Part shown: piece after piece, positions 28,063-46,904 of the stretch | Layout: each line of letters opens with the position of its first letter | Numbering within the stretch: the first letter of the stretch is position 1 | Origin: an uncultured Acidobacteriota bacterium | GTDB lineage: Bacteria; Acidobacteriota; Vicinamibacteria; Vicinamibacterales; 2-12-FULL-66-21 | Direction of reading: 5' to 3' | Length of the DNA: 64,000 nucleotides | Assembly (NCBI GenBank): GCA_963771415.1 | Contig: CAVYTI010000011.1 | Span: forward strand, 303,501 to 367,500 | Program-made: the position numbers and the translations under genes | Notes under the pieces: model-generated | The model's input: only the letters and a program-made list of their open reading frames with translations | Told to the model about the DNA's origin: nothing | The model's database searches: none

Positions 28063-28203
28063 CCCCATCAGGGCCGGGTTTGGCCTGTGTGCCTGAGGTA
28101 ACGTGGCGAGCGCACCGGCACTTGTCGATCTCGCGGGGGCTCGTTCGACGACTAGATAAGGAAGAGGGTTCTTTCGAGGTCCCTCCAAAACAAGGAGTGG
28201 TCA

Positions 28204-28623
28204 ATGCGTGTTCTCGTGATCGTCAAGGCGAGCAAAGAGTCCGAAGCTGGTCAGATGCCGAGCCAACAGCTGCTCGCGGCGATGGGGCAGTACAACGAGG
28301 AGCTGGTCAAGGCTGGCATGATGCTCGCCGGCGACGGCCTCCATCCGAGCTCGAAGGGCAAGCGGGTTCGCTTCTCGGGTCAGAACCGGACGGTGATCGA
28401 TGGACCGTTCGCCGAAACCAAGGAGCTGATCGCCGGCTTCTGGATTTGGCAGGTCAAATCGATGGACGAAGCGGTCGAGTGGCTGAAACGTGCGCCGTTC
28501 GATGGCGGAGCCGAGGTCGAGATTCGGCCGTTCTTCGAGGCCGACGACTTCGGGAAGGAATTCACGCCCGAGTTGCGAGCCCAGGAAGAGAGACTGCGGG
28601 CGCAGATCGCCGGGAAGTCGTAA
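28204..28623 (+). CDS. YCII-related (DGPF) domain protein
   Basis: 139 aa. MRVLVIVKAS...VIDGPFAETKELIAGFWIWQVKSMDEAVEWLKRAP. It is a paralog of the gene at 41208-41636. Confidence 0.85.
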   Translation: MRVLVIVKASKESEAGQMPSQQLLAAMGQYNEELVKAGMMLAGDGLHPSSKGKRVRFSGQNRTVIDGPFAETKELIAGFWIWQVKSMDEAVEWLKRAPFDGGAEVEIRPFFEADDFGKEFTPELRAQEERLRAQIAGKS

Positions 28624-29605: not shown

Positions 29606-30081
29606 CTACTCCAGACCCAGCGCGCGTGCCACAGTGTGGAACAGATCCGTCTGGTTCGTGACGCCCAGCACGTTCGCCGCCTGCGGTCCCTGAGCGGCCA
29701 GCCGCACTTCCGATCCGGTGTGATCCTGCGACGTGCCATGCGCACGCGTTCCGTAGTTGATCGTCATCAGATGAGCGAGGGATCCCCTTCCTGCAGCGCA
29801 TACGTTGTGTACTCGCCGGTCAGGGGCAGCGAGTCCATCCACAGGCGACCGTTGGCGCCGACTTGATAATTGCGGGCGATCGTGATTTCTGAATCGCCCA
29901 TCCCGTCGCCGAGGAACATGATGACGTTCTTGGCGCGGCCCCCTTCGATCGCGCGGCGCAGGCTTTCGACCTGATCCTCACGATTCGACCGCGTCCAGAC
30001 GTGAGCACTGGTGAATCCGACAGCGATCATCGCTGTCGCGACGACAATGGTCCGTTCGAGCCCCGTGCTGAGTGTGCGCAT
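29606..30081 (-). pseudogene. phoA: Alkaline phosphatase (PhoA family) with ~300-codon internal deletion plus frame change
   Basis: The N-terminal part (ATG 30081 after GGAGGGG) reads KNVIMFLGDGMGDSEITIARNY...LPLTGEYTTYALQ and stops at 29767, before the DSAAS active-site Ser. The other frame then reads MTINYG...SQDHTGSEVRLAAQGPQAANVLGVTNQTDLFHTVARALGLE. That matches the E. coli PhoA C-terminus [38 protein letters not shown]. Confidence 0.75.
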
Positions 30082-30276
30082 CTTTACCCCTCCGGGCACG
30101 GATGCTAGATGGGCAACGTAACCGAGGGGCTTCACACAGGTAACGAGCGCGTCACATTGTGTTGCTCACGATCTGGCGTCTCCTTGTGACGGCGGCGGCG
30201 CGCGGACGCGAATCAGGACGTCGTCCGGACCTGGCGCGCGTCTTCGCAGACAATATCTGCAGGGTTCGGTCTGGGA

Positions 30277-30714
30277 ATGCGGATGGCTTTCATGTCCGCT
30301 CCCTGGCAATACTCTGTACTGGAGGGTTCGGTGCGATTTGGCAGGGTGGTGTTCCTGGGAGCCGGCGTCTGGGGAATTCTGCTGCTGACCCCGTTGTTCT
30401 TCGCGTTCGATCTGATCGGCCGGCGGTTTCCGCCGCCAATCACCCACGCGGATTTCTACTACGGGTTCCTCACGGTTGCGCTGGCCTGGCAGTTTGCCTT
30501 CCTCGTGATCGGGCGCGACCCGATCCGCTTCCGCCCGATGATGCTGCCGGCGATGCTGGAGAAGTTCGGTTACGTCGGAGCGCTCGTCGCGCTCTATGCG
30601 CAGCAACGGATCCAGGCCGGCCAGGCGCTGGCCGCGGCACCAGATTTCGTCCTTGGAGTGTTGTTCGTGCTCGCGTACTTCAAGACGCCGTCGCCTATCG
30701 TGAGAGCGACCTGA
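30277..30714 (+). CDS. Hypothetical 4-TM membrane protein
   Basis: 145-aa ORF with four clear hydrophobic helices. No family recognised and the start is uncertain. Confidence 0.55.
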   Translation: MRMAFMSAPWQYSVLEGSVRFGRVVFLGAGVWGILLLTPLFFAFDLIGRRFPPPITHADFYYGFLTVALAWQFAFLVIGRDPIRFRPMMLPAMLEKFGYVGALVALYAQQRIQAGQALAAAPDFVLGVLFVLAYFKTPSPIVRAT

Positions 30715-30761
30715 CGTCTTGCCCATCGTTGTCGGCAGGGCGGATGGATTCGGCGCCGGCG

Positions 30762-32768
30762 CTACGTCCCGCTCCGCGCCGTCGTCTCGAATCGGGCGAT
30801 CTGATCGCGCGTGCCGAGGACGGCGACCAGATCCCCGCTCTCCAGCGTGGCATCGCTGTCAGGGTTCGCCGAAAGCACCCCGTCGCGAATGATGCCCACA
30901 ATGGAGACGCCCAGTGTTGAGCGCAGTCGCCCTTCGCCGATGGTGGGTCCGCTCAGGGCGGCTGCCTGCCGGGATGCCGACCCATGTGAAGTCGAGCAGA
31001 CGGGCCACGTCGCTGATCTCGGAGATCAGCGCGAGGCCGGTGTCGGCTCCCGCCCGACAGGCCGTAGCGCTGGCGACGAATTGCGCTGCGCAACCTGCAG
31101 AATCTCGTGCGCCGGCACGTTGAAGTAGCTGAGCGCCTGTCGCGTCATCTCGATCGCCGCTTCGTACTCCGGCGACGCGACCTCCTGGATACCGAGCGCG
31201 TAGAGCGCGCGGACGGCGTCACTGCCTGCGGCTTGCGCGATGATCGGGATGTCCTGGCGAAGATGTCTGACGGTCGCGACGATCGCGCGAGTGTCGGGTA
31301 GGGCGGGGACGGTCACCAGCACGGCCCTCGCGCGTTGGACGGCGGCTGCCTCCAGCACGACACTCTGGCTCGCATCTCCATAGATCACTGGAAGCCCGGC
31401 GGCGCGCGCCTGTTGGACGCGGCGATCGTCGAGCTCGATCATGACGCAGGGCAGACCGAGGTGCGCGAGCGCGTCGGCGATGCTGCGCCCGACACGTCCG
31501 CCGCCGGCGATCACCACATGGTCGGCCAGGCCGCCCTCCGGAATGTTGATCGACTGCAGCGGCTCGGACGACCCCTTGCGCCGGAACCACCCGTAGAGGG
31601 CAGGCGTCAGACCGGAGATCGCCGGGGTCAGCACCATCGTGACGATTGTGGTGCTCAGCGCGATCGTATACAGCCCGTCGTCGATAGCTCCACTCGAGTG
31701 CCCCAGCCGCGCCAGCACGAAAGCAAATTCGCCGACTTGAAAGAGGGTCAGGCCGGTGGCCAGCGGGACCACGTTGCGGTAGCCGAAAAGGCGGACCACA
31801 ACCGCGAGAATCAGCGCCTTGCCCACGATGACGACGACGACGACCAGCGCCAGGATGCCGAGATGGCTCCAGGCCGATCGCGGATCGAGCAGCATGCCAA
31901 CCGACACGAAGAAGAGCATGCCGAAGATGTCACGCAGCGGGATGACGTCGCTCAGCGCCTGGTGCGCGTACTCGGACTCGTTGATGACGAGCCCGGCGAC
32001 GAATGCGCCAAGCGCCAGCGACAGCCCGAACGCGCGGGTGGCGAACGCCACACCCACGGCGATGGCAATGGTCGAGAGCAGAAACAGCTCGCGCGAGTTC
32101 CAGCGGGCCACGAACGCCATCGCGCGCGGCACCAGTCGCGTCGAGACCAGCACGATGACCACCAGCAGGACAGCCGCGCGGAGGCCCGCACTCACGACCG
32201 GCAGGAAACCGCTCTGCGGGTTGCTCAGCTCCGGCAACATAATCGTCAAGGGCACGATGGCCAGGTCCTGCAGCACCAGAATCCCGAGCATGACCCGGCT
32301 CGACAGGGTCCCCAGCCGCCCCTGCGCCTGAATCGTCTTCAGTGCCACCATCGTGCTCGACATCGCGACCAGCGATCCGAACCACGCGGCCGGCACGGAT
32401 GACCAACCGACGGCACGAGCAAGCCCGAACCCGAGACCAATAGTCAGTACGATCTGAAGCGCGCCGCCCGCCAGCGCCACCGTACGCACCGGACGCAGCT
32501 CGCGGAACGACACCTCGAGCCCGAGCGAGAAGAGCAGCAGCACGACACCAAGCTCCGACAACTGCTCGAGGTTCTCGACGTTCGCGACAGTGACACCCCC
32601 CGTGAACGGACCGACGGCGACGCCGGCGAGGATGTAGCCGACAATGAGCGGCTGACGGAATCGCTGGGCCAGGTACGCGCCGGCCAGCGCCGACACCAGC
32701 ACGACGGTGAGATCGGCGACGAGATCCACGTCGTCGTGCAGCCTATCCGGTTGCTGCGAACGCGGCAA
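30762..32768 (-). pseudogene. CPA2 cation:proton antiporter (Kef-type) with TrkA-N and TrkA-C domains; in-frame TGA and local frame scrambling between the two TrkA domains
   Basis: The 580-aa ORF holds the Na_H exchanger TM core plus TrkA-N (VVIAGGGRVGRSIADALAHLGLPCVMIE). TrkA-C (AAALSGPTIGEGRLRSTLGVSIVGIIRDGVLSANPDSDATLESGDLVAVLGTRDQIARFE) continues in the same frame after TGA 31028-31026. Between about 31082 and 30966 the protein-like reading (IRRQRYGLSGG / ADTGLALISEISDVARLLDFTWVGIPA) lies in the other two frames. Confidence 0.8.
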
Positions 32769-32901
32769 TGGCGCGACGCGGGTACGAGCCCGTCGGCGCG
32801 ATCATTTCCCGTCGCGAAGGCGAGGCGACCACTCACCGGGCGCGATATATGGGAATCAATCAAATCGTCCACAGGAACGGGGTGTGCGAACGCGGCGTTC
32901 C

Positions 32902-32931
32902 TTGACATCCGATCGCGTTGCGATGTATTTA
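32902..32931 (+). promoter_or_regulatory. Candidate sigma-70 promoter for arsR-family gene (TTGACA-18 nt-TATTTA), followed by imperfect palindrome TTAACCATCAGGATAATTAA
   Basis: Read directly in the divergent kef/arsR intergenic region. The palindrome (32929-32948, 14 of 20 symmetric) could be the ArsR-type operator. Confidence 0.35.
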
Positions 32932-32962
32932 ACCATCAGGATAATTAACGCTCCGGTTCAAT

Positions 32963-33322
32963 ATGCAGGTCACCTCCGATCCCCTCAGCACCACCTTCTC
33001 GGCCCTCGCCGATCCCACGCGGCGCGCCATCCTGTCGCGGCTGGCCTCCGGCGCCGCCTCTGTGACCGAGCTGGCCGAGCCGTTCGACATGAGCATGCCG
33101 GCCGTCTCGAAGCATCTCAAGGTGCTCGAGCGGGCCGGATTGGTCGCGCGCAGCCGCGACGCTCAGTGGCGGCCCTGCCGCCTCGAGCCGGCGCCGCTCA
33201 AGGATGTGGCGGAATGGATCGCGCACTACAGCCGTTTCTGGGAGGAAAGCCTCAACCGCCTCGACGAATACTTGCGGCGCCTCGAAATAAAGCCGGGCCG
33301 CCGACGCCGGCGACGAACCTAG
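32963..33322 (+). CDS. ArsR/SmtB-family transcriptional regulator
   Basis: 119 aa. [50 protein letters not shown]. Confidence 0.9.
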
Positions 33323-33368
33323 ACCTGGTCAACTCTCAACTCTCACGTGGACGCGTAATAGGACGATC

Positions 33369-35822
33369 ATGACCCTGCTGACTGATTTTCGCTTCGCGCT
33401 GCGCTCCCTCGCCCGAGTGAAGGGCCTGGCAATCACCGTCATCATCACGCTGGCGCTGGGCATCGGCGCCAACGCTGCCATCTTCAGCGTCGTCCGAGGC
33501 GTGCTCCTGCGGCCGCTGGTCAATCGCGACGAAGATCAGCCTGATCTATATCCGGCAGACCGCGAAGGGCGCCGGCGTGGAGAACGCCGCCTTCTCCGTC
33601 CCGGAGATCCAGGATTTGCGGGGTCGGATCAAGACCCTGAGCGCCTTCGGCGACTTCTCGACGATCGACTTCACCATGGTCGGGCTGGGTGAGCCGCGCG
33701 TCGTCCGCGCGGGCGTGGTCGGCGGATCCGTACTTCGACGTGATGGGGCTTCACCCGGTGGTCGGCCGCCTGATCGGCCCTGCGGACGACGGGCCGCAGG
33801 CGCCCGGTGTGGCGGTGCTGACGTACCGCTTCTGGACGACCTCGCTGAAGAGCGACGCGTCGGTGATCGGCAGGACGGTGCGGTTGGGAACCCGCACCGC
33901 GACCATCGTGGGTGTCCTGGAACCTTCGGTGCCGTATCCGTCGGAAACCGAAATCATCGCCAACGTCGTGACCAGCCCGCATCATCTGTCGGCGACGATG
34001 GTGACCGGGACGAGTGCACCGAATGACCGAACTGTTCGGCCGACTGGCCCCCGGATCCGATCTGGAAGCGGCTCGAGCCGAGCTGCGCACGGTGCACGCC
34101 TCGATTGTCCAGCAGCATCCCGAGGCGTATTCGGCGAAGGCGGACTTCCGCATCGAAGCGGTTCGCCTGCGCGACCAGATCACGTCGCGGGCCAGAACGG
34201 TGCTGCTCGTGCTGCTCGCGGCCTCGGCGCTGGTGTTCGTGATCGCCTGCTCGAACGTCGCCAACCTCATTCTGGCGCGGTCGGTGCGCCGCGAAGGGGA
34301 GTTGGCGATCCGCGCCGCCCTGGGTGCCAGCAACGCCGCGCTGCGACGGACGCTGCTCGCCGAGAGCCTTCTGCTGTGCGGGACCGGCGCCATTCTGGGT
34401 GTGGCGATCGCCTGGCCGGCGGTCGCGGTCCTGGCGCGCTACGCCTCGCGCTTCTCCGTGCGCGCGCTGGACCTGACGGTCGATGCCAGCGTGTTGTGGG
34501 TCGGCGTCGGACTGGCGATCGTCGCCGCCGTTCTCCTCGCCTACGTGCCCCGGCTCCCGTCGCAGGGGGCCTCACAAGGTCTCGGGCTCTCGAGCGGCAG
34601 CCTGCGGATCACTTCCGGAACCAACCGGCGCCTTCGCGTATTCGCGGTGACGCAGATCGCCGCGTCGTTCGTGCTGCTCGCCGGGGCCGGGATGCTCTTG
34701 ACCACGCTGCTCTCGCTGCAGACCGCGCGCACCGGATTCGATCTGCGCAATGTGTTGGCGATCCACGTCCCGGTGATGTCCTACGGACGCACGCCGGCGC
34801 AGGTGATCGACTTCTATAAGGAAGCGATGCGCCGCATTAGCGAGCTGCCGGGCGTGGAGCGCGTGGCGGTCGGCACCATCGTGCCCTGGCGCGATGCCGG
34901 AGGCTTCGGGCCGGGCTTTCAGTTCTCGGTCGACGGCTACGCCCGGGCGGATGGTGAAGAGGATCCGCGGGCACGGTTCCGAACCATCTCACCAGGATTC
35001 TTTGCCGCGCTGGGCGTGCCGATCATCGCTGGCCGGGATTTTTCCGACGCCGATCGCCGCGACACCGAGCCCGTCGTCATCATCAGCCAGAGCGTTGCGC
35101 AGCGGATGTTTCCCAACCGCGAAGCGCTCAATCGCCACATGATGTGGACCGATCCGGTCATGAAGTTCATCGACGTCGGCACCGGCCCACGCCGTATCGT
35201 CGGCATCGCCGCGGATGTGGACGACGAGAACGTGGTGCCAGGGCCTGCGCTGAGCGTGTATCAGCCGTTCGAGCAGGAGATCGGTGGCGGCCGGCTGTTC
35301 GTTCACACCAAGACCAATCCGTATGCGCTGGTTCCGCCGATCACCCGCATCATCCGCGATCTGTCCGCCGATCAGCCGGTAGAGCGTGCCGCGACGCTGG
35401 AGGACGTCCGCGCCGAAGTGCTCGCACCGGATCGGTTGAACGCGCTGGTCTTCGGCGGATTCGCCGGCGTCGCCCTGATGATTGCGGTCGTGGGGGTGGC
35501 CGGCGTCCTGGCGTTCTCGGTCAGTGCGCGGACCCGCGAGTTCGGCATCCGTCTGGCGATCGGCTCCGCCCCCCGCCATCTGCTGACGAGGGTGCTGCGT
35601 GAAGGCGCGGTCATTGCGGGCGCCGGAACCGTGGCCGGCGCCATCGCCGGCTTTGCGCTGGTGCGCTTTGCCGGCAGCTATCTGCAGGAATTGCGAATTC
35701 CCGGAGTGCTGCCAATCGGCGGCGCCGCGCTCGTGCTGATTGCCGCGGCGATCCTGGCCTCGCTCATGCCGGCGGCACGCGCGTCGCGGATCGACGTGAT
35801 CCGCGCGCTGCGCTCAGACTAG
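33369..35822 (+). pseudogene. Duplicated MacB/FtsX ABC permease (ADOP family) interrupted by three +1 frameshifts (~33540, ~33730, ~34010)
   Basis: Four track ORFs (33369, 33577, 33689, 34014) are in frames 0, +1, +2, 0. They join into one continuous ADOP sequence: ...[11 protein letters not shown]|[26 protein letters not shown]...VVGGS|YFDVMGLHPVVGRLIG...ATMVTG|RVHRMTELFGRLAPGSD... Confidence 0.85.
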
Positions 35823-36673
35823 TAGGTCCGCGCGACGGCCGCGGGTCGAGGTACTTCACGAAGACGACCTCGTTCCGGCGTTCGTTGTAGATCAGCTCGT
35901 CGACGCTGGCGCGCACCATCATCAGGCCGAAGCCGCCGGGGCGAATGCCTTTGTCCTCGCGAATCTGCATGTGCGCGATCGGATCGTCCGACGGATGGCC
36001 GATCGCGGCGTGCGGCAGCTCCTCGATCTTGAACCCCGGTCCGGGGTCGGCAATCCGATACATCAGCATCCGATCGGAGCGGAGGCACGCGATGCGCACC
36101 TTTCGCTTCGGATCCAGACGCCCGCCCCATTCCACCGCGTTGAGGAGAAGCTCCCTGAACGCGTAGCCGATCGATTCGCGGAGCTCCGGCGCGAGGTCGG
36201 TGTCGAGTTGCGCCATCACCGTCTGGATGTGTTCGGCCGCCTCTCGCGTGCAGGGCACCACGAGTTCGACCCATTCGGCCCGTGCAGAGATCACTTCGAC
36301 CGGCGGCAGATCGGGCGCCGCCAGCGCCGCGCGGACGGTCTGCAGCAGCGTCATCGAGTCGACCGGCTTGTGGACGTACCTGAAGGCCTGCTCGCGAACT
36401 GCCTTCAGCAGCGTTTCCGGGGCCTCGTCGGAGGTCATCACGATGACGCGCGGCCGCGCCTTGCCCGGCTTCAACTTGGCCAGCAGGTCCAGACCGTTCA
36501 TCCGCGGCATCCAGACGTCGAGCAACAGGAGGTCGACCCGCCGCGTCCGCAGTACGCTTGAGCGCCTCGACGCCATCCTTCGCCGCGGTCGCCGCAAAGC
36601 CGGCGCTCGTGAGCACCTTCCGCAGCAGATGACGAGTGGCCTGATCGTCGTCGACGACGAGAATCTTCTTCAT
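35764..36673 (-). pseudogene. Response-regulator receiver fused to RsbW/SpoIIAB-like HATPase (anti-sigma-type Ser kinase) domain; one +1 frameshift near 36553
   Basis: REC reads [40 protein letters not shown] | LRTRRVDLLLLDVWMPRMNGLDLLAKLK...VIVMTS...HKP. The HATPase_c_2-like region follows: FRELLLNAVEWGG, IADPGPGF, GGFGLMMV. The ATG overlaps the stop of the upstream kinase gene (ATGA). Confidence 0.75.
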
Positions 36674-39600
36674 GACCGACTCCGGGACGACCGCGGTGAG
36701 GGACGAGACGTCTCCGAACGTTTCGATTTACGCGGGCCTGACTTGCGTTGCTTCCTGCGGCTCGGCGTGTTCGGCCGCACCAGGCCGGCACCCACGAATT
36801 CGGCATCGAGGCGTTGAACCAGGATTTGCAGTCGCGCCAGACTCTGGTGCGCTGCCGCCTGCTGGTCCGGTAGAACGAGCCGCTCGAGGTCCGCAGCTGC
36901 CTCGCGCCCGGCAGCCGAGCCGACGGTCGCGATCGCCCCCTTCAACCCGTGCGCGGCCTCCCGCAAGCCATCGCCGTCATTGCGTCGGATCGCCCTCTCG
37001 ACACGATGCAACGCCGCCGGTGTGTCGGCGCGAAACATCCGGACGACTTGCCCGAGCAGCTTCCGGTCTCCGCCGGTATAGGCCAGCGCGGCCTGTTCAT
37101 CGAACAGGCTCCCCTCCGGGATGCTGACTGGCGCGACGGTGGAAGTGACCTCCTCGCCACCAAAACGTTCGACCGTCGCGATGAGCTCGTCCACGTCGAT
37201 CGGTTTCGACAGATATCCGTCCATGCCAGCCGCGAGACACCGGTCGCGATCGACCTGCATGGCATGGGCGGTGAGGGCAACGATCGGCAGGTGACCGCCG
37301 CGCTCGCGCTCACGCTGACGGATCGCCTCGGTCGCTTCGAGCCCGCTCATCTCCGGCATCTGCAGGTCCATCAGCAGGACGTCGAACTGGTCTCCGGGAC
37401 GCGGCCGCGTCGCACGCGGCGCGTCCGTCCGACACCGCCTTGACCTCGTGGCCGCGCTTCTGGAGAAGCTTGGTCACCAGCGTGCGATTGACGGCGTTGT
37501 CCTCCGCGACCAGTACCCTGAGCGGCCGCTGCGCCTTGGATCCTGGTGCCTTGGCCACGGCTCTGGGCGGCGCGTGACGCACCGATACGCTGAACAGCGT
37601 CGCGAGCGTGTCGAGCAGATCCGAATGCCTCACCGGCTTGGTCAGGAGCGCGTCGAAGTCGACTCGACGGCGACCGCTCAACTGTTCCGCGTGGCCAACC
37701 GAGGTCAACATGACAATCGGCAGACGCGAGAGTCGCCGGTCCGCCCGAATGCGGCGCGCCAGCGCAAAGCCGTCGACGCCAGGCATCTGGCCGTCCAGCA
37801 GCACCACGTTGAAGCGCTCGCCGGTGTGCCCGGCGTTTTTGAGCGGCGGCCGTGGCGCTGGCCGCGTCGGCGACGCTGATCGGCCGCATATGCCAGCTGC
37901 CGAGCATCTCTTCGAGGATGCGACGGCTGGTGGCGTTGTCATCGACGACCAGCACGCGGAGACCTTCCAGGGCCTTCGGCCGCTCGAGATCGGCCGTGCG
38001 ACTGGCGGCCTGCGGCAGATCGAAATGCGCGGTGAAAGAGAAGGTGCTGCCGCGGCCCAGCTCGCTCTCGACCCACAAGCGACCGCCCATCAACTCCACC
38101 AGCCGCAGCGCAATCGCCAGGCCCAGGCCGGTGCCTCCAAATCGCCGCGTCGTCGAGCTGTCGGCTTGGGTGAAGGCCTGAAAGATCTGCAACTGCTTGT
38201 CGGCGGCGATCCCGATACCGGTGTCGCTTACCGCGAAGCGCAGCGTCGCTCGCGACCCGCTGACGGTCTCGACGTCGACGCGCAGAACGTACCTCGCCGG
38301 ACTCCGTGAACTTCACGGCGTTGCCGAGCACGTTCAAGAGCACCTGGCGCAGCCGCCCGGCGTCGCCGAGCACCGTCTCCGGCGCGTCGGCCGAGACATG
38401 GCAGGCAAGCTCGAGTCCCTTTTCGCTGGCACGGAGCGCCAGCAGCTTCGCCGCGTCCTCGACGGCCTCACGCAGGTCGAACTCGGTGTGCTCGAGGTCG
38501 AGTCGGCGCGCCTCAATCTTCGAGAAATCGAGAATGTCGTTCACGATCGCCAGCAGCGATTGCGCCGACGACTTCACCGTATCGAGGTAGTCCTGCTGTT
38601 CGGCCGACAGCTTCGTCTGCAGCGCGAGGGTTGTCATGCCGAGGATCGCGTTGAGCGGCGTGCGGATCTCGTGGGTCATGTTGGCGAGAAACGCGCTCTT
38701 GGCCTCGGTCGCTTCCTCGGCGCGCCATTTCGAGACCTCGAGCTCTTTGACGAGCTGGGCGAGGCGCGCGGCCTGATCTTCGAGCGCGTGCTGGCTCGTT
38801 TCGAGATCGCGGGCGTAGCTCGCCATCGTCTCTTCGGCGGCTTTCCGCTCGGTGATGTCGCGCGCGGCGGCATAGACGATCTGGTGCTGTCGGAACGGCG
38901 CTGACGTCCACATCAGCCAGCGCACGGTCCCGTCCTTGTGGAGGTAGCGGTTCTCGAACGAAGCGATGTTCTGTCCGCCGGTCAGCCGGCTCGCCTGCTC
39001 GAGCGTGAGGTCACGATCGTCCGGGTGAACCAGATCCATGTAAGGACGCGAGAGCAGCTCCTCCTCGGTGTAGCCGAGAATGCGTTCCCACGCCGGATTG
39101 ATTCGCTTGAAATATCCGTCGAAGCCGGCGATGCAGAGCATGTCGAGCGACAGCGTGAAGAATCGATCGAGCTCCTCCTGGGCGCGGCGCCGATCGATGA
39201 ACAGCCCGATCTGGTTGCCGACGCTGGTGAGCATCGACAGGAGGTTCTCATCCGGCGCCCGGATGTCGCGGCTGAAGAACTCCATGACGCTCTGCACCTG
39301 ACCGCGGAGCAGTATCGGAAACCCGAACGCTCCGTGCAGCCCTTCGCGCGCGGCGATCGATTGTCTCGGGAAATTCGTGTCGTGGACGACGTCGGGAATC
39401 CAGGCCGGCTGAGCCAGGCCCCAGACGCGGCCGGGCAGGCCTTCGCCGCGGCGGAAGGTGATCCGCCGGCTGACCGCATCGAACTCGGGAAACTCCACGA
39501 CGGGCGAGCACCAGGTGTCCACGCACCGAAGGAGATCGGCTTCTCGATCGATGCGCCAGAGCGCGCCGTACTGCCAGTCCAGCGCGTCGCAAATGGCCTC

Positions 39601-39726
39601 GAGGATCCTCGGCGCGGCCTCGCCAAACGTGGCGGACTCGACGAGGGCGCGGGCGGCGACGTGCTCCGCGGTGAGGCGCCGCTCGGCGTGGCCCTGCGCA
39701 TCGATCGGACGAGGCTCTGGAGCCAT
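36670..39726 (-). pseudogene. Hybrid sensor histidine kinase GAF-PAS-HisKA-HATPase-REC-REC-HPt, interrupted by three +1 frameshifts (~38290, ~37844, ~37393)
   Basis: Four track ORFs (starts 39726, 38192, 37942, 37371) are in frames 0, +1, +2, 0. Motifs in order:
- GAF: GLPGRVW...FGFPIL
- PAS: MLCIAGFDGYFKRINPAWERILGY
- H-box: [14 protein letters not shown]
- N-box: [12 protein letters not shown]
- DTGIGI and GTGLGLAI
- REC1: VLVVDDN...[12 protein letters not shown]
- REC2: VLVAEDN...[12 protein letters not shown]
- HPt: AAHGLKGA. Confidence 0.85.
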
Positions 39727-39807
39727 GGTGATTCGGTGCTGATTATAGGTCGCCGTCCGTCACGATCGATGCCGGTGCGAAACGGCCAAACCGCAGGCGA
39801 CGGCGGA

Positions 39808-41070
39808 TCAGGAGGGCCGACACGTCCGCGCGCGGTCGAGCAGGAGCTCTCGTTCGCGGACGTTGGCAGTCAGGCTGGCCGCCCGCTCGAACTCCACACG
39901 GGCCTCTTCGAGCCGACCCAGTTTGGCGAGCAGGTCGCCGCGAACGCTCGGCAAGAGGTGATAGTCGCGAAGCTGCGGCGAGTCGGTCAGTTGATCGACC
40001 AGATCGAGACCCGCCTGTGGACCAAACGCCATCGCGACGGCCACAGCTCGATTCAGTTCGACGACGGGAGATGGGTGGGTGGAGGCGAGGAGCTGATAGA
40101 GCGAGGCGATGCGGGTCCAGTTGGTCTCGTCGGCCGTACGGGCACGCGCGTGACAGGCGGCGATCGCCGCCTGAAGCGTGTAGGGACCCGCCGACACCGC
40201 GAGCGACTCGGCGCGGGCCAGGGCTGTCAGCCCGCGGGAGATCAGCAGGTGATCCCAGAGCGCACGATTCTGGTCCAGCAGCAGGATGGGCTCGCCGCCC
40301 GGACCGAGACGGGCGCGCGATCGTGAGGCCTGAATCTCCATCAACGCCACGAGCCCGTGCACTTCGGCTTCGTCCGGCACGAGCGTCGCGAGGATCCGAC
40401 CGAGCCGCAACGCGTCCTCACAGAGTGCCGGACGCATCCAGTCGTCGCCCGCGGTCGCGGTGTAGCCCTCGTTGAACACCAGGTAGACGACTTCGAGCAC
40501 CGACGAGAGCCGTGGCGCCAGCTCGGCGCCGCGCGGCACCTCGAAGGGCACGCGCTCCTTCGCCAGCGTGCGCTTGGCCCTCACGATGCGCTGCGCAATC
40601 GTCGGCTCCGAGACGAGGAACGCGCGAGCAATCTCGATGGTGGTCAGTCCGCCGAGGAGGCGAAGGGTGAGCGCGACGCGAGCCTCGGTGGACAGAACCG
40701 GATGGCAGGCCGTGAACACCAGCCGCAGCAGGTCGTCGCCCACATCGTCATCGAGTCCTGCGGTGAAGTCCGGCACGGTGGCCTGCTCGGCATCGAGCTC
40801 ACGCCCGAGCACTTCGTGCTTGCGCGCGAGCAACTTGGTGCGACGAAAATAGTCGATCGCCCGATGCTTGGCGGTCGCCATCAGCCAGGCGCCCGGGTTT
40901 CTCGGCACGCCGGACTCGGGCCATTGCTCCAACGCCGCCACCAGCGCATCGTGTGCAAGATCCTCGGCCACGCCGACGTCCCGGACAATGCGGGCCAGGC
41001 CGGCGATGAGCCGAGGCGCTTCGATCCGCCAGACCGCGTCGATCGCGCGGTGTGTATCGGTAGCCGCCAT
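39808..41070 (-). CDS. ECF sigma factor with ~240-aa C-terminal helical-repeat extension (the YCII-associated type)
   Basis: 420 aa. Sigma region 2 reads DLAHDALVAALEQWPESG...PGAWLMATAKHRAIDYFRR. Region 4 reads LLGGLTTIEIARAFLVSEPTIAQRIVRAKRTL. A long TPR-like tail follows, and a YCII gene sits immediately upstream. Confidence 0.85.
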   Translation of the reverse strand: MAATDTHRAIDAVWRIEAPRLIAGLARIVRDVGVAEDLAHDALVAALEQWPESGVPRNPGAWLMATAKHRAIDYFRRTKLLARKHEVLGRELDAEQATVPDFTAGLDDDVGDDLLRLVFTACHPVLSTEARVALTLRLLGGLTTIEIARAFLVSEPTIAQRIVRAKRTLAKERVPFEVPRGAELAPRLSSVLEVVYLVFNEGYTATAGDDWMRPALCEDALRLGRILATLVPDEAEVHGLVALMEIQASRSRARLGPGGEPILLLDQNRALWDHLLISRGLTALARAESLAVSAGPYTLQAAIAACHARARTADETNWTRIASLYQLLASTHPSPVVELNRAVAVAMAFGPQAGLDLVDQLTDSPQLRDYHLLPSVRGDLLAKLGRLEEARVEFERAASLTANVRERELLLDRARTCRPS

Positions 41071-41096
41071 CGACTACCGATCACATCACAGTCCCG

Positions 41097-41210
41097 CGTC
41101 CCTCGTCCTTAGTCCTGGGTCCCGAGTCCGCTGGCCACATCGGCGCAGACCAGGGACCAGCGACGGAGAACCCGGGACTAGAGACCAGGGACGAGGGAGA
41201 CCAGGGACTA
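41097..41210. repeat. Imperfect long inverted repeat built from GGGAC/CCAGGGAC-type short repeats in the YCII-sigma intergenic spacer
   Basis: Read directly. TCCCTCGTCC...TAGTCCTGGGTCCCGAG (left arm) faces GGGACTAGAGACCAGGGACGAGGGAGACCAGGGACTA (right arm). A 9-bp perfect core is CCCTCGTCC/GGACGAGGG. The element (G)ACCAGGGAC occurs three times. Confidence 0.5.
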
Positions 41211-41636
41211 ATGAGTCGCAGCCTTCTTCTGCAGCTCTTCCCGCCACGCCTGCTCGCGGGCCGCCTCTTCTGGCGAGAACACTTCGGGCGAGAAATCGGT
41301 CGGCTCGAAGATCTGACGGATCTCGCTTTCGCCGTCGCCGGCAACCCGGAGGAAGCGTTTGGTCCACTCGATGGCTTCCGCCTTCGACTTGACCTGAATG
41401 AGCGCGAATCCGGCGATCAATTCCTTGGTCTCGGTGAACGGGCCGTCGGTCACCGTCACCTTGCCGTCGGCCTGCCGAATCCGAGCGCCCTTGGCGCTGG
41501 GCTGACATCCCTCGGTGGCGAGGAGCACCCCGGCAGATACCATCTCTTCAATGAGTTTTCCCATCTCGGCCACGTGCTCCCGCGTCGGCGGTGTTCCCTC
41601 CGGACGGCTCGGTCGATAGACACACAGAAATCGCAT
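41208..41636 (-). CDS. YCII-related (DGPF) domain protein
   Basis: Only the last 142 codons of the 426-aa track ORF are credible: MRFLCVYRPS...VTDGPFTETKELIAGFALIQVKSKAEAIEWTKRF. Confidence 0.85.
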   Translation of the reverse strand: MRFLCVYRPSRPEGTPPTREHVAEMGKLIEEMVSAGVLLATEGCQPSAKGARIRQADGKVTVTDGPFTETKELIAGFALIQVKSKAEAIEWTKRFLRVAGDGESEIRQIFEPTDFSPEVFSPEEAAREQAWREELQKKAATH

Positions 41637-41776
41637 GATCCAGCTCCCTCTGAAAATCTGGGCCGAAGCCTCAGTTCGTTTTTCCCTTCCACTTGGACGT
41701 CGTTCGACCGACCGCCAAATCGACACGCCGCCCGGGAAAAATTCTTTTCGACCGGATCTTAACGGAAGGACGGGCC

Positions 41777-42472
41777 TTACAGGGACGCTGAACGCGCCGC
41801 TCGACGCGCGATTCGCTCGAGCACCTGCGTCCGGAGTCGAACGCATCGGGAGGCTCGGAACTGGAATGCGGTAGCGGCGCTCGGGCGCACGTGCGAGCCA
41901 AGCGCAGAGCGGAGCAGCCGACGGGCGCGAAGGAGGCGTGTCTTGACGACGTCGATCCCGACATCCAGGTGGTCTGCGGCCTGGCTCGTGCTCAGCCCTT
42001 CGACCTCGCGCAACACGAAGACCATCCGGTACGGCTGGGGCAGACCGTCGATCGCTGCCTCGACCAAGCCGATCAACTCGCTGCCAAGCGCCTGACGTTC
42101 GGGGTCGGGCGTGTTGGAGTGCACGCCCTCGGCGGCCTGCTCGATGTTCAGGGCACTCGTCCTGTCCGAGGTCTCGGAACGGACACGGGCGAGTGCCTCG
42201 TTGATCGCGATTCGCGTGAGCCACGTCGAGAAGCGGGCCCGGCCCGCATACTGGCCGAGATGGAAATAGGCGTTGATATACGCCTGTTGAATCACGTCTT
42301 CGGCCAGGCTGTCGTCGCGCAGAATGCTCCTCGCGGCACGATACAGGCGTTGGTTGTAGCGCTGCATCAGGATCGCGAAGCTCTGGTCGTCGCCGCCGAG
42401 GACGCGCTCGACTATTTGTTCGTCGGTCAGGTTCGCCGGCACATCCTTCCGGTCCGGTCCGCCTCCTTCCAT
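41777..42472 (-). CDS. ECF sigma factor with short conserved C-terminal tail
   Basis: About 231 aa. Region 2 reads LAEDVIQQAYINAYFHLGQYAGRARFSTWLTRIAINEAL. Region 4 reads GLSTSQAADHLDVGIDVVKTRLLRARRLLR. The tail is FQFRASRCVRLRTQVLERI; compare FGFAGERCDRIVDRVLSRV in the paralog at 50860. ATG 42472 follows GGGAGG. Confidence 0.85.
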   Translation of the reverse strand: MEGGGPDRKDVPANLTDEQIVERVLGGDDQSFAILMQRYNQRLYRAARSILRDDSLAEDVIQQAYINAYFHLGQYAGRARFSTWLTRIAINEALARVRSETSDRTSALNIEQAAEGVHSNTPDPERQALGSELIGLVEAAIDGLPQPYRMVFVLREVEGLSTSQAADHLDVGIDVVKTRLLRARRLLRSALGSHVRPSAATAFQFRASRCVRLRTQVLERIARRAARSASL

Positions 42473-42600
42473 CACACCTCCCGATCAATTGAGTCGTCCC
42501 GACCTCGAAACGTTCCCGCTGTCACTTTTCCTCGCTGATTCCCTCTCTATAAGAGACCCAGCACGGGAGTCCGGCACCCGGCTGCCATCTCGGAGGAGCG

Positions 42601-44037
42601 ATGCGAATATTCGCCGTGCTGACGCTCTGCAGCTGTGCTGCGATGCTCGGCTTGCCGTTTTCGACGTCTAGAAAATCCCCACCGGGGGCTGCAAGAGCTG
42701 AGGCTCTGATTGCCGCGCACCCGGTCGCGCTGGCCAACCCCTCTCAGAGCGAGATCCCCGCAACCATGGACCGTCGTGCTGGCGACAACGGCGCCGCCCG
42801 TCAGCCCCATGACGCTGACGATCCGACGGCGCAACACACGCTGCGTCTGATCGAGGAAGGTCGGCATACCTTTCGATTTGATACGTTTGGCGACGAGGCT
42901 TTCTGGGGAGGCGGCCTTCGTCTGCACGAGGCCATCGCCGGTCAGCGGCTCGGCGGCGTCGGCCCCGGTCTGAGCCCGCGCTCGGCGCTCGGGCTCGGCT
43001 TGAAGGTCGATGTGGAGCGGCTGCCACCAACCCTCGTGGTCGGGCTGAAGCGCGGCGCAGTCAACCTCGACGACCCGGCCATCACCGTCGCCCTTCTCGG
43101 CCTCAACGCCGTCGTCGGCGTCACCGGCTTCTTCGACAGAGGGAAGCTGACATCGGTCGGCATCCAGTGCGCGCTGTGTCATTCAACGGTCGACAATCAG
43201 CTCGCACCCGGAATCGGTAAGCGGCTGGACGGCTGGGCGAACCGCGACCTGAACGTCGGCGCGATCGTGGCGTTCGCTCCAACGGTGCAGCCATTCGCGG
43301 ATCTGCTGGGCGTCGATCAAGCGACCGTCCGTGCAGTGTTGAACAGTTGGGGACCAGGCAAATTCGATGCGGCGCTCGCGCTCGACGGCAAGGCGTTTCA
43401 GCCCGACGGCCGATCGGCCGCAACCCTGCTGCCTCCCGCCTTCGGCCTGGCCGGCGTGAACCTCCATACCTGGACGGGCTGGGGCAGCGTGACTCACTGG
43501 AACGCGTTCGTCGCGAACCTCGAAATGCACGGCCAGGGGAACTTCTTCGATCCGCGGCTCGACGATCCGATCCAGTTTCCGGTCGCGGCCAGAGCCGGCT
43601 TCTCGAACGTGCGACACTCCGTCGATCTGATCTCGTCGAAGCTGCCGGCATTGCAGTTCTACCAGCTCTCGCTGCCTGCGCCGAAGCCGCCGCCGATCAG
43701 CTTCGACCATGCCGCCGCCAGGCGGGGACAGGACGTTTTCAACGACCGCGGACAGTGCGCTACGTGTCATGTCCCGCCGCTGTTCACCGAACCAGGATGG
43801 AACAGCCACGCGCCGGCGGAAATTGGCATCGATAGTTTTCAGGCCGACCGCTCACCCGACCGCCGCTATCGCACGTCGCCGTTAAAGGGTTTGTGGACGC
43901 ACACGAAGGGCGGCTTCTATCACGACGGGCGTTTCGCCACGCTGCGTGACCTCATCGAACACTACGACACGTTCTTCGGGCTTCGGCTGACAACCCAGGA
44001 GAAACAGGACCTGATCGAATATCTGAAGTCGCTCTAG
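42601..44037 (+). CDS. Di-haem cytochrome c peroxidase-like (CCP/MauG superfamily) protein, secreted
   Basis: 478 aa. ATG follows GGAGGAG and a signal peptide is present. There are two CxxCH haem sites (CALCH, CATCH). The C-terminus GLWTHTKGGFYHDGRFATLRDLIEHY is typical of the family. Confidence 0.8.
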   Translation: MRIFAVLTLCSCAAMLGLPFSTSRKSPPGAARAEALIAAHPVALANPSQSEIPATMDRRAGDNGAARQPHDADDPTAQHTLRLIEEGRHTFRFDTFGDEAFWGGGLRLHEAIAGQRLGGVGPGLSPRSALGLGLKVDVERLPPTLVVGLKRGAVNLDDPAITVALLGLNAVVGVTGFFDRGKLTSVGIQCALCHSTVDNQLAPGIGKRLDGWANRDLNVGAIVAFAPTVQPFADLLGVDQATVRAVLNSWGPGKFDAALALDGKAFQPDGRSAATLLPPAFGLAGVNLHTWTGWGSVTHWNAFVANLEMHGQGNFFDPRLDDPIQFPVAARAGFSNVRHSVDLISSKLPALQFYQLSLPAPKPPPISFDHAAARRGQDVFNDRGQCATCHVPPLFTEPGWNSHAPAEIGIDSFQADRSPDRRYRTSPLKGLWTHTKGGFYHDGRFATLRDLIEHYDTFFGLRLTTQEKQDLIEYLKSL

Positions 44038-44219: not shown

Positions 44220-44402
44220 GTCGTTCCGCGTGTTCCGCGTGTTCAGCGGCCCGACGTCGTTCCGCGTGTTCCGAGGAGTCCGCGGCCCGATGTCGTTCCG
44301 CGTGTTCCGCGTAGTCCGCGGCCCGGTGTCGTCCCGCGTGGTCCGCGTACTCCGCGGCCTGCAAGGTGTCGTCCCGCGTGGTCCGCGTACTCCGCGGCCT
44401 GC
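44220..44402 (+). repeat. Five tandem copies of a 36-40 bp unit (GTCGTYCCGCGTGKTCCGMGKAGTCCGCGGCC...) running into the start of the downstream gene
   Basis: Unit boundaries are 44220, 44256, 44292, 44328 and 44368, giving lengths of 36, 36, 36 and 40 nt for the first four units. Units 4 and 5 are identical over 35 nt. Unit junctions carry ATG/GTG codons (44218, 44290, 44326, 44366). Confidence 0.85.
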
Positions 44403-45457
44403 GGGCGGCGCCGTGCGCTGTCGTCTCACTGGGCATGGCGATGGCCCAGGCGTCAGCGCCGCCGTCTCATGACGCAAAGCAGGAGCTGTGGCGGTCCTGT
44501 GCGGGCTTCACCGACGCCGACATGTCGCGTGTCGCCGGCGGCACGGTCACTGCCAGATCGCTCGGCTCTCCCGAACATCGCGAGACGGCCGTGGCCGGCG
44601 CGGTTCGGATCTACGTGCCCGTCGACTTCTTCGTCACGCGCTTCCGCGACATCGTGGCGTTCAAGCGAAGCGACATGGTCCTGCAGATCGGCCGCTTCAG
44701 CAGTCCGCCGAATCTGGGCGATGTCGGCACGCTGACGTTCGATCCGACCGATCTCGACGCGCTGCGACGGTGCCGTGTCGGCAACTGCTCGCTGAAACTG
44801 CCCGCCGACGCCATCGAGCGGTTTCGGACGACGGTGAACTGGTCGGCGAGCGACTGGCGCGAGCAGGCGACACTGCTGGCCCGGAAGCTGCTGGTTGAAA
44901 GTGCGACCGCCTACCTCGAGCGCGGCGACGCCGCGATCGGGCCGATCAGCGACAGGCGGAAGCCGGTCGACGCCGGCGCCGAATTTCGCGGGCTGCTGAC
45001 CAACGTCGCGTGCGATCGTGCGTTCGCGCCCGGCTTCTTCCAGTATCTTGCCGACTATCCGAAGAACCGGCCGCCGGACGCCGAGAACTTTCTTTATTGG
45101 TCCAAGGAGACGTTTGGCATGAAGCCGGTCGTGAGCCTGACCCACGTGGTGATCCACCGACCACACGCCGGGGCGGTGCTGATCGCGACCAAGGGTCTCC
45201 TCAGCAATCACTACCTCGACGCGTCGCTCGGCCTAACGCTGCTCCTGCCGGCAGGGTCGCCGGAGTCTCCGGCGATCGACCTCGTCTACGTGAATCGTTC
45301 GCGGGCCGACGCGCTCGGCGGTCTCTTCGGGGGGCTCACCCGCGCCATCGTCGCCGGCCGCCAGCGTGACGGCACGATTACCGAGCTGAAAGCGCTCAAG
45401 ACCCGTCTCGAAGCGAACTGGCGGGCGGCCGCATCCGGCCGCCAGCCGGACAAGTAA
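44366..45457 (+). CDS. Hypothetical secreted protein
   Basis: 363-aa ORF. The N-terminus VVRVLRGLRAAPCAVVSLGMAMAQA looks like a signal peptide. Composition is protein-like and I recognise no family. The start lies inside tandem-repeat unit 5. Confidence 0.7.
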   Translation: MSSRVVRVLRGLRAAPCAVVSLGMAMAQASAPPSHDAKQELWRSCAGFTDADMSRVAGGTVTARSLGSPEHRETAVAGAVRIYVPVDFFVTRFRDIVAFKRSDMVLQIGRFSSPPNLGDVGTLTFDPTDLDALRRCRVGNCSLKLPADAIERFRTTVNWSASDWREQATLLARKLLVESATAYLERGDAAIGPISDRRKPVDAGAEFRGLLTNVACDRAFAPGFFQYLADYPKNRPPDAENFLYWSKETFGMKPVVSLTHVVIHRPHAGAVLIATKGLLSNHYLDASLGLTLLLPAGSPESPAIDLVYVNRSRADALGGLFGGLTRAIVAGRQRDGTITELKALKTRLEANWRAAASGRQPDK

Positions 45458-45524: not shown

Positions 45525-46904
45525 TTGAAATCCTCTCCGGTGAGACCACCCGAGCCTCGGCGCGCACCTTCGCGGATGCTGGCCGTGGGTGTGTGCCTGG
45601 CGCTGGCGGTGATCGCGGCGGTCGGCACCTACACCTTCGTGCAGGTGCGCAAGCTGCGTGACGAGCAGACGGCGATCAGCGAGCGGAACCGGAAGGGCTC
45701 GCTCCAGCTGTTGCGCATTCAGAACGATCTGGGCTCGGTCGGGGTCTTGATGCGCGACATGGCGGAAGGGGTCGAACCATATCCGCTCCAGGGCTGGCGT
45801 CCGGCGTTCGACCGGCTGCGCCGCGATCTCTCCGAGGCGACCTCGGTCGAGCAGACGCTGGCGCCGGCGGCACGACAACCGGCGCAACAAGCGCGGCTGC
45901 TGCAGTCGATCGACGCGTTCTGGACGGACGTCGATCGGATGTTCACCCTCAGCCGAACCGACGAGCCCGCCGCCCGGCTGATGATCCGAGGCCCGCTCGT
46001 CGCGCAACATCGGGCGATCGACGGGATGATTTCGCAGTTCCTGGTCCTCAACAACCAGGTGCAGGAAGAGGCCGCCCACGCCAACCGCGACATCTACGAT
46101 CGCGTCGGCCGCGAGATCCTGCTGCTGGTCGGCGGACTGCTGCTCGTCACCGCCCTGGTCGGCGCCTGGTTCGTCTCCTCCAACCGCCGCGCCTTCGACG
46201 AAGTCGCCGACGTCAGCGCCCAGCTGCGCACGCTGTCATGGCGAACGCTGCGCGTACAGGAAGACGTGCAGCGCTCGATCTCGCGGGAACTGCACGACGA
46301 CTTCGGCCAGATCGTGACCGCCATCGGCACGCTGCTCGGACGGGCGCGGCGGCAGACGCCGCCGTCGAGCCCGCTCGCCGCCGAGCTCGACGGTGTCCGC
46401 ACCATCGCCCAACAGGCGCTCGATCGGATCCGGACGCGGTCGCAGTGGCTGCACCCGGGATTGCTGGACGACTTCGGGCTGGAGCGCGCCCTCCAGGTCT
46501 GCGTCGATCAGTTCCAGCGCCAGACCGGCATCCGCACGACGCTCTCGGTCGCCGGCGAGGTGCAGGCCATTCGGGACGGTCGCGCCATCCATGTCTATCG
46601 CATCGCCCAGGAGGCGCTCAGCAACATCGGGCGGCACTCCGGATCGACCGAAGCGTGGGTCAGGCTGACCACCGATCAGGAATGCCTGAACCTCGAGATC
46701 GAGGATCACGGGAAGGGCATGCCGGTTGACGAGGTCCTCGGCCGGACCGATCGCGGGCTCGGCCTGGTCAGCATGCGGGAGCGCGCGGAACTCATCGGCG
46801 GAGAGCTGTGGCTCCGCGAGCGGGAGCAGGGAGGCGTGCGCGTGCAAGTACGCGTTCCTGCGTGGACTGCGCCGGCGGCCCCGGCGCGCAACGAGGTCGC
46901 ATGA
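45525..46904 (+). CDS. NarX/LiaS-type sensor histidine kinase (HisKA_3 + HATPase_c)
   Basis: H-box is ISRELHDDFGQ, followed by HPGLLDDFGLERAL. N-box is AQEALSNIGRHS. IEDHGKGM and GLGLVSMRERAELIGG are present. The track start is TTG 45525, but ATG 45576 (MLAVGVCLALAVIAAVG) is more likely. Confidence 0.85.
   Translation: MKSSPVRPPEPRRAPSRMLAVGVCLALAVIAAVGTYTFVQVRKLRDEQTAISERNRKGSLQLLRIQNDLGSVGVLMRDMAEGVEPYPLQGWRPAFDRLRRDLSEATSVEQTLAPAARQPAQQARLLQSIDAFWTDVDRMFTLSRTDEPAARLMIRGPLVAQHRAIDGMISQFLVLNNQVQEEAAHANRDIYDRVGREILLLVGGLLLVTALVGAWFVSSNRRAFDEVADVSAQLRTLSWRTLRVQEDVQRSISRELHDDFGQIVTAIGTLLGRARRQTPPSSPLAAELDGVRTIAQQALDRIRTRSQWLHPGLLDDFGLERALQVCVDQFQRQTGIRTTLSVAGEVQAIRDGRAIHVYRIAQEALSNIGRHSGSTEAWVRLTTDQECLNLEIEDHGKGMPVDEVLGRTDRGLGLVSMRERAELIGGELWLREREQGGVRVQVRVPAWTAPAAPARNEVA

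Follow-up and report, generated by a model that had tools for sequence, protein, structure and literature searches.

In this study, we analysed a 64-kb window (64,000 nt, with a G+C content of approximately 65 %) of contig CAVYTI010000011.1 from an uncultured Acidobacteriota bacterium. Within this window, five consecutive genes on the minus strand (35.8–42.5 kb) encode an extracytoplasmic function (ECF) sigma factor, a YCII-related protein, a second and longer ECF sigma factor, a hybrid histidine kinase ending in an HPt domain, and a receiver domain fused to an RsbW/SpoIIAB-like ATPase, hereafter referred to as the receiver protein (Table 1). A first-pass annotation, made from the sequence alone, had described the five genes as a single regulatory super-cluster, and Pfam confirmed the domains that it had assigned to each of them. 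However, only the kinase gene and the receiver gene constitute a conserved pair, and the 'super-cluster' of five genes is not conserved as a whole. We consider it probable that the region consists of three units, namely, a lone ECF sigma gene, a YCII–ECF42 module and a conserved two-gene operon, and that the operon encodes a phosphorelay-gated RsbW-like switch, the partners of which are encoded outside the window.

Conservation of the kinase–receiver gene pair

One genome per GTDB species was scanned, and 296 genomes, almost all labelled Acidobacteriota, were found to encode a relative of the receiver protein. From these, 80 loci were taken with 10-kb flanks, and the comparisons of gene neighbourhood covered up to 84 related loci (83 others for neighbour clustering). 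Relatives at 75–85 % identity numbered in the thousands and were annotated as Vicinamibacterales or Acidobacteriota. The kinase gene was located immediately upstream of the receiver gene, on the same strand, at 73 of the 80 species loci, and was divergently oriented at four Terriglobia-like loci; one locus lay at a contig edge, one (L071) retained a kinase remnant, and one (L072) carried a stand-alone HPt gene instead. Since the same arrangement recurs in 73 of 80 species, the pairing of kinase and receiver protein clearly exceeds chance. In the window, the stop codon of the kinase gene overlaps the start codon of the receiver gene as ATGA (36670–36673), and an overlap of this type, either ATGA or GTGA, was detected in 56 of the 73 same-strand pairs. 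Over the 80 species, the median identity was 74 % for the receiver protein and 64 % for the kinase, the two values having been obtained with different reference sequences. The high-level conservation of the receiver protein suggests that it takes part in an important and constrained interaction.

A promoter element conserved with the pair was also identified. The sequence cTATAATc was found 11–18 nt upstream of the kinase start at 36 non-redundant related loci (L002, L003, L005, L007–L055 and others), at which the upstream genes and the upstream sequences were otherwise unrelated; neither a conserved ‒35 element nor a Shine–Dalgarno-like sequence was detected at these loci. Because TATAAT is kept whatever the upstream gene, these results suggest that the kinase pair has its own conserved promoter, from which a near-leaderless mRNA would be transcribed in this 65 % G+C genome. 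The element emerged from the cross-species comparison only, and not from the scan of the single window, in which the segment 35500–42800 yielded no two-hexamer promoter under the criteria of the scan and terminators only in numbers at chance level.

Identity of the receiver protein

Pfam identified two domains in the receiver protein (285 aa after correction, see below), namely, Response_reg at residues 4–113 (E value 3e-28) and HATPase_c_2 at residues 145–273 (5e-15), and no match to SpoIIE (PP2C). The HATPase_c_2 match scored 55.8–56.1 bits, the gathering cutoff being 27.4, and spanned positions 11–127 of the 127 positions of the profile. In an alignment of 33 homologues, the receiver-domain residues D8, D9 and D10 (acidic pocket), D52 (phospho-acceptor), T80, Y99 and K102 were all invariant. 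The same was true in the ATPase domain for E174 and N178, for D209, G211 and G213, and for G246, G247 and G249, which, on visual comparison with the SpoIIAB motifs, we take to be the N, G1 and G2 boxes, respectively.

Next to these motifs, the predicted structure was compared with the Protein Data Bank (PDB). For the full-length AlphaFold2 model (predicted local distance difference test score, pLDDT, 73), the first-ranked match by Foldseek was LvrC of Leptospira (PDB 9QIH, E value 6e-17), with 22–23 % identity over 310 alignment columns. The template-modelling (TM) score of this full-length alignment, 0.42, is low because the relative orientation of the two domains differs or is uncertain. In the PDB sequence file, the entry 9QIH bears the label 'SenB', and its name in the Foldseek library is 'response regulator LvrC from Leptospira'. 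When the C-terminal domain was modelled by itself (pLDDT 72), the model matched LvrC first, followed by RsbW and SpoIIAB of Bacillus subtilis, UsfX of Mycobacterium tuberculosis and the RsbW domain of Rv1364c. The 21 best PDB matches of this model all belonged to these five proteins (E values of 2.6e-7 to 9e-3), and the catalytic and ATP-binding (CA) domains of the histidine kinase DesK followed after them, at E values of >0.08 only. The predicted Bergerat fold is thus nearer to RsbW/SpoIIAB than to the CA domains of histidine kinases. Since the sequence of the C-terminal domain, when searched against the PDB by itself, gave 9QIH as the sole match, and a marginal one, the fold was settled by structure prediction and Foldseek. 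Taken together, the HATPase_c_2 profile from the domain search that the first-pass annotation had proposed and the Foldseek matches bear out its description of a receiver fused to a SpoIIAB/RsbW-type ATPase.

The receiver protein and LvrC have the N box in common, and towards the C-terminus they share the motif VDEL(I/V)YN...NEV.F.K.L. With the C-terminal domain as the query, 1269 relatives were detected among 1.84 billion cluster representatives, 641 of them at an E value of ≤1e-10. The full-length relatives were approximately 275–300 aa long with the domain at approximately 125–285, that is, of the same receiver-fused architecture, and the single-sequence search detected the domain almost only in receiver-fused form. 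RsbW, SpoIIAB and UsfX (PDB 6M36, 1L0O, 1TH8 and 8JZT) match the receiver protein in fold and in the N, G1 and G2 motifs, but these are stand-alone proteins of approximately 140–160 aa, encoded in operons with a STAS antagonist and a sigma factor, whereas here the domain is joined to a receiver and carries a longer, highly conserved ATP-lid insert.

The hybrid kinase and the proposed phosphorelay

In the corrected kinase, Pfam identified GAF (32–178), PAS (194–295), HisKA (342–406), HATPase_c (454–567), two REC domains (the second at 737–851) and, as had been predicted, a terminal Hpt domain (892–974). The combination of HisKA, HATPase_c, REC and HPt in one polypeptide is that of the unorthodox hybrid kinases of the BarA/TorS/ArcB type; in NCBIfam, the best similarities were to BarA and TorS, both under the equivalog cutoffs. 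In both internal receivers, the acidic pocket and the acceptor Asp are retained, as are the Thr and the Lys. Since inspection of the N-terminus revealed no hydrophobic segment, the kinase is probably cytoplasmic. Orthologues at four related loci (L002, L003, L085 and L086) are intact and 985–1011 aa long.

An HPt-terminated kinase translationally coupled to a receiver–RsbW protein fits a phosphorelay that gates an anti-sigma-type kinase, and this part of the earlier proposal is plausible, given the precedents described below and the conservation of the pair. Upon signal, the soluble GAF–PAS sensor kinase would autophosphorylate on His, and the phosphoryl group would pass within the kinase to the Asp of an internal receiver and then to the His of the HPt domain. 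From there it would be transferred to Asp52 of the receiver protein, and this phosphorylation would alter the manner in which the dimeric RsbW/SpoIIAB-like ATP-binding domain engages its partners. The likely partners are a STAS anti-sigma antagonist, which would be phosphorylated on Ser or bound, and/or a non-ECF sigma factor, which would be sequestered or released; they would be encoded outside the 64-kb window, and would not be the neighbouring ECF sigma factors. The gene structure, the domains, the fold, the conserved pairing and promoter element and the STAS linkage in a sublineage were observed here; the phosphotransfer, the activity as a kinase and the choice of targets are what we infer.

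Comparison with known systems

The closest structural relative, LvrC of pathogenic Leptospira (Nat Commun 2026, PMC13269768; PDB 9QIH, released March 2026), consists of a receiver and a Bergerat anti-sigma domain, is phosphorylated by LvrB and was crystallized with ADP-Mg; a change of partner engagement upon receiver phosphorylation is its proposed mechanism (PMC13269768). Like the receiver protein, LvrC is a protein of approximately 290 aa with two domains, a canonical receiver and an RsbW/SpoIIAB-like Bergerat domain. The phosphodonor differs: LvrC receives its phosphoryl group from the HisKA domain of a separately encoded, receiver-controlled kinase, and here the donor is presumably the HPt domain of the adjacent, coupled GAF–PAS hybrid kinase. 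The two pairs also belong to different phyla, LvrB–LvrC to Spirochaetota and the present pair to Acidobacteriota.

Control of an RsbW-like kinase/anti-sigma protein by a receiver has been demonstrated for HptB–HsbR–HsbA of Pseudomonas aeruginosa and CrsR–CrsA–RpoS of Shewanella oneidensis, in the former of which an HPt protein feeds HsbR (PMC6482189). As is proposed for the present pair, an HPt phosphorelay leads in HsbR and CrsR to the phosphorylation of a receiver, and this receiver governs an RsbW-like domain of the same polypeptide, the target of which is a STAS antagonist. In HsbR and CrsR, however, a PP2C domain lies between the receiver and kinase domains, and a STAS gene is present in the cluster, whereas the receiver protein carries no PP2C domain and no STAS gene lies within the 64 kb; moreover, kinase and HPt domain form one polypeptide here, while a separate HPt protein feeds HsbR. 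The characterized precedent SypE–SypA of Vibrio fischeri (PMC10120452) likewise has a receiver that regulates an RsbW-like serine kinase in one polypeptide, with the single-domain STAS protein SypA as the substrate, but its domain order is kinase–REC–PP2C and its output is biofilm control and not a sigma factor.

Our literature search found no paper that combined a receiver domain, HATPase_c_2 and anti-sigma. The earlier statement that this wiring is not a textbook architecture was nevertheless overstated, in view of HptB–HsbR–HsbA and CrsR–CrsA (PMC6482189), SypE–SypA (PMC10120452) and LvrB–LvrC (PMC13269768). Both the HPt-to-receiver-to-RsbW-like wiring (HsbR/CrsR) and the two-domain receiver–Bergerat form (LvrC) are already known. 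Distinct here are the lack of PP2C, a fused HPt as the predicted donor in place of the HisKA of LvrB, the chromosomal coupling to the kinase and the occurrence in Acidobacteriota.

STAS genes linked to the pair

Neighbour clustering of the 83 other loci revealed one additional gene type of mechanistic interest, encoding a STAS domain protein. At four loci (L018, L019, L026 and L043), the kinase gene was immediately preceded, on its own strand, by a gene of a STAS family with a phosphorylatable Ser in a DSAG motif, and the same arrangement was found at L085 and L086, which were reached independently from the STAS protein. The STAS gene lies approximately 90–180 bp upstream of the kinase gene at these six loci, and one sublineage of Vicinamibacterales has the three-gene order STAS, hybrid kinase and receiver–RsbW. 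At L072 (locus positions 8919–9925), a divergent STAS gene (protein 51–56 % identical) adjoins the stand-alone HPt gene and the receiver gene, an arrangement that resembles HptB–HsbR–HsbA, and at L071, a STAS protein with 41–46 % identity is encoded 5 kb away. More distant members (53–55 % identical) are orphan genes without a kinase alongside. The STAS genes near the pair at L008 and L044 belong to other families, and that of L008 has a PAS–SpoIIE–HATPase_c_2 partner of its own. STAS is the sole recurrent functional neighbour of the pair, which fits a partner-switch role, and its linkage in the sublineage points to a partner switch with partners encoded elsewhere in the genome studied here.

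The same STAS genes bear on a narrower alternative, that the fused domain acts only as a serine kinase of a STAS protein and sequesters no sigma factor, as in SypE–SypA or in the action of HsbA on the diguanylate cyclase HsbD. The linkage in several lineages and the invariant nucleotide-binding motifs are consistent with such a kinase, and a STAS protein is the downstream effector in both SypE–SypA (PMC10120452) and HsbA–HsbD (PMC6482189). On the other hand, a linked STAS gene is lacking in the majority of species, the phosphorylation could not be reversed by a PP2C domain of the receiver protein, since it contains none, and LvrC, the closest structural relative, has been interpreted as an anti-sigma factor (PMC13269768). 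We therefore regard a function as a STAS kinase only as unlikely.

The neighbouring sigma factor genes

The remaining three genes and the other features of the region are listed in Table 1. The first ECF sigma factor scored 244 bits in the equivalog model NF008888/PRK11922, for which the cutoff is 204. By the tblastn thresholds used, a homologue of it was located near the pair at only one of the 84 related loci, that of the closest species (L005, 55 % identity), where a PadR gene and a permease gene occupy the position of YCII–ECF42 between the first ECF gene and the kinase gene. This sigma factor is a stand-alone gene outside the conserved module.

The long sigma factor contains sigma2 and sigma4 domains, DUF6596 (5.3e-35, 120 bits) and a weak TPR_2 match, with a C-terminal extension of approximately 250 aa. 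A long, TPR-containing C-terminal extension and a YCII gene directly upstream are both traits of ECF42, and YCII and the long sigma factor together look like a self-contained ECF42-type module, a label that follows from the domains and the YCII neighbour and not from phylogeny. As the first-pass annotation had noted for long ECF sigma factors in general, the conserved YCII neighbour is an ECF42 trait, together with a TPR-rich extension at the C-terminus, some 200 residues in length, and the lack of an anti-sigma factor (PMC8999054). The same TPR extension and YCII neighbour are found in ECF42 of Streptomyces venezuelae Sven_0747 and others (PMC8999054). ECF42 sigma factors are reportedly regulated via their own C-terminal extension, which is required for activity, and not by an anti-sigma factor (PMC8999054; bioRxiv 10.1101/2019.12.11.873521).

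Both YCII genes of the window are preceded by a near-identical sequence, TGTCGAT-N11-TCGWWCGAC, for which a loose pattern gave 13 sites in the window. This element is a candidate ECF42-dependent promoter that would be common to two distant targets, and we take it to resemble the target promoter reportedly described for ECF42.

Table 1. Features of the regulatory region and associated elements, with positions in the 64-kb window
Feature	Position	Strand	Evidence
REC–HATPase_c_2 response regulator (receiver protein), 285 aa corrected	35814–36673	‒	Pfam
Hybrid histidine kinase GAF–PAS–HisKA–HATPase_c–REC–REC–HPt, 1017 aa corrected	36670–39726	‒	Pfam, on ORF pieces and corrected protein
Perfect TATAAT hexamer, 15 nt before kinase ATG	39742–39747	‒	Sequence; cross-species comparison
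ECF42-type sigma factor, 420 aa	39808–41070	‒	Pfam Sigma70_r2, Sigma70_r4_2, DUF6596, TPR_2
Degenerate heptamer tandem repeats, GACCAGG (approximately 8 copies) and AGTCCCG (approximately 6 copies)	41090–41208		Tandem Repeats Finder and sequence
YCII-related (DGPF) protein, 141 aa	41208–41633	‒	Pfam YCII, 6.2e-14
TGTCGAT-N11-TCGAACGAC, promoter-like, 65 nt upstream of YCII start	41699–41725	‒	Pattern search
ECF sigma factor, 232 aa, intact	41777–42475	‒	Pfam Sigma70_r2 and Sigma70_r4_2; NCBIfam NF008888/PRK11922 equivalog
TGTCGAT-N11-TCGTTCGAC, 54 nt upstream of second YCII gene (28204–28623, +)	28123–28149	+	Pattern search

The junctions between the five genes had been described as short or overlapping. 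The ATGA overlap of the kinase and receiver genes stands, but it is the only overlap; the remaining gaps, of 143, 137 and 81 bp, are not tight and contain promoter-like elements, and the gap between the YCII and long sigma genes is filled by the heptamer repeats. Transcription of the five genes as a single operon was rejected on account of these promoter elements and because the gene order is not conserved.

Searches by HMM, phmmer and Pfam detected, in the vicinity of the two sigma factor genes, no adjacent gene for a STAS, PP2C or classical anti-sigma protein, in agreement with the earlier observation that neither has a classical anti-sigma partner. This lack, the position of the five genes close together on one strand and the fact that in the closest species, too, the first ECF gene lies upstream of the pair could be accounted for if all five formed one circuit, in which the phosphorelay-gated anti-sigma kinase controlled one or other of the adjacent ECF sigma factors, as the first-pass annotation had proposed. 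We consider this reading very unlikely. When the order of the five genes was compared, a check that had been set in advance, ECF42-like sigma and YCII genes were found at none of the 84 related loci even though the receiver protein is 56–83 % identical across them, and in the closest species the YCII–ECF42 module is replaced by the PadR and permease genes. Any ECF-like gene within 10 kb of the receiver gene was present at only 6 of the 83 other loci. The kinase gene has the conserved TATAAT element to itself, and the YCII gene has its own ECF-type motif. SpoIIAB-type anti-sigma factors reportedly contact region 3 of the sigma factor (PDB 1L0O), a region absent from ECF sigma factors. The window contains four ECF-type sigma genes in 64 kb (11032–11592, 39808–41070, 41777–42475 and 50863–51666), so that sigma genes adjoining other regulators by chance are likely; the five-gene adjacency is lineage-specific and expected by chance in such a sigma-rich region. 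Given the unconserved gene order, the region 3 contact and the reported control of ECF42 by its own extension (PMC8999054; bioRxiv 10.1101/2019.12.11.873521), a neighbouring ECF sigma factor is unlikely to be the target, and the adjacent-sigma link of the earlier proposal was not borne out.

A HisKA_3/HATPase_c histidine kinase is encoded on the plus strand at 45525–46904, 3 kb past the first sigma gene, and the intervening genes at 42601–44037 (with several CxxCH motifs) and 44366–45457 gave no Pfam match. A search of the entire window with Rfam gave no match.

Frameshifts in the kinase and receiver genes

In the uncorrected sequence, the kinase is spread over four open reading frames (ORFs) and the receiver protein over two; the left boundary first assigned to the region, 35764, is where the uncorrected frame ends, while the corrected receiver gene ends at 35814. 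We compared the window with a JGI metagenome contig (L001) that is 97 % identical to window positions 29762–38035 and carries the genes intact. All coding indels relative to this contig were +1 insertions in the window, ten in 8.3 kb (37844, 37392, 36556, 35824, 34007, 33730, 33540, 31090, 31047 and 30956), and no coding deletion was found. Six of the ten insertions are located in the convergent gene for a MacB/FtsX-type permease (approximately 33.5–35.8 kb) and in the gene for a Na+/H+ exchanger (approximately 31.0–32.8 kb). An eleventh shift, in the kinase gene at approximately 38289, lies beyond the coverage of the contig. Approximately 950 bp of the contig (8275–9230) are missing from the window at approximately 29762–29770, which represents either an indel polymorphism or an assembly difference.

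Removal of single bases at approximately 38289, 37844 and 37392 restored the kinase as one ORF of 1017 aa, and removal of those at 36556 and 35824 restored a receiver protein of 285 aa that is 99 % identical to an intact database protein (P0001), in both cases without internal stops. Between the window and the metagenome contig, the receiver gene showed 13 synonymous and 4 non-synonymous changes, with a pN/pS ratio of 0.11, and the C-terminal half of the kinase gene a ratio of 0.38, indicating purifying selection on both. Insertions of one type, scattered over unrelated genes under selection, argue for sequence or assembly error and not for decay of the locus. The five frameshifts of the pair are probably sequence errors, and the insertions from 30956 to 38289 look like a systematic sequence error across the region. 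Although the split ORFs are what a decaying locus would present, it is therefore highly improbable that the kinase and receiver genes are pseudogenes through five real frameshifts, and the earlier caveat that the locus might be dead was not sustained.

Evaluation of the proposed switch

Several observations weigh against the interpretation of the pair as a phosphorelay-gated RsbW-like switch with partners elsewhere in the genome. Both structure models are of moderate confidence (pLDDT 72–73) with a poorly modelled ATP lid, and identity to LvrC, the sigma target of which is unknown (PMC13269768), is only 20–23 %. No STAS gene was detected when all six-frame ORFs of the window were searched with an HMM of eight linked STAS genes, and phmmer detected no PP2C gene and no second RsbW-like gene in the window. 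The eight flanking genes have unrelated functions only by Pfam, and the window contains no group-3 sigma gene. STAS adjacency was observed in one sublineage and at L072 only, and is absent from most species. The frameshifts were judged from the comparison of contigs, and there is a small probability that they are recent and real. The likeness of the TGTCGAT-N11 motif to the ECF42 target promoter is tentative. Finally, the adjacency would be compatible with a lineage-specific rewiring of the receiver protein onto a neighbouring ECF sigma factor, which has a small probability. Set against the conserved pairing, the invariant motifs and the conserved promoter element, these points leave the three-unit organization, with the operon as a phosphorelay-gated switch, as the reading that we favour.

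Biological implications

The region provides an example in which regulators that lie side by side in a genome rich in sigma factors offer weak evidence of wiring, and in which apparent pseudogenes are best explained by region-wide sequence errors. The receiver-fused anti-sigma-type kinase is among the most conserved regulators of Vicinamibacterales (median identity 74 % over 80 species), in Acidobacteriota, an abundant and poorly studied soil phylum. If it acts like LvrC or HsbR, it would link a signal sensed in the cell by the GAF and PAS domains to global control of transcription or lifestyle, and its partners are worth finding. Tentatively, the pair may represent a phylum-wide and unusually conserved master switch of soil Acidobacteria, in which a cytoplasmic GAF–PAS phosphorelay, through receiver phosphorylation alone, toggles a phosphatase-less, two-domain receiver–anti-sigma kinase directed at a global sigma factor outside the ECF type, at an orphan STAS protein or at both. 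If so, it would be a minimal hybrid of two-component system and partner switch, unlike the three-domain HsbR and CrsR, and an independent counterpart of the Lvr pathway of Leptospira.

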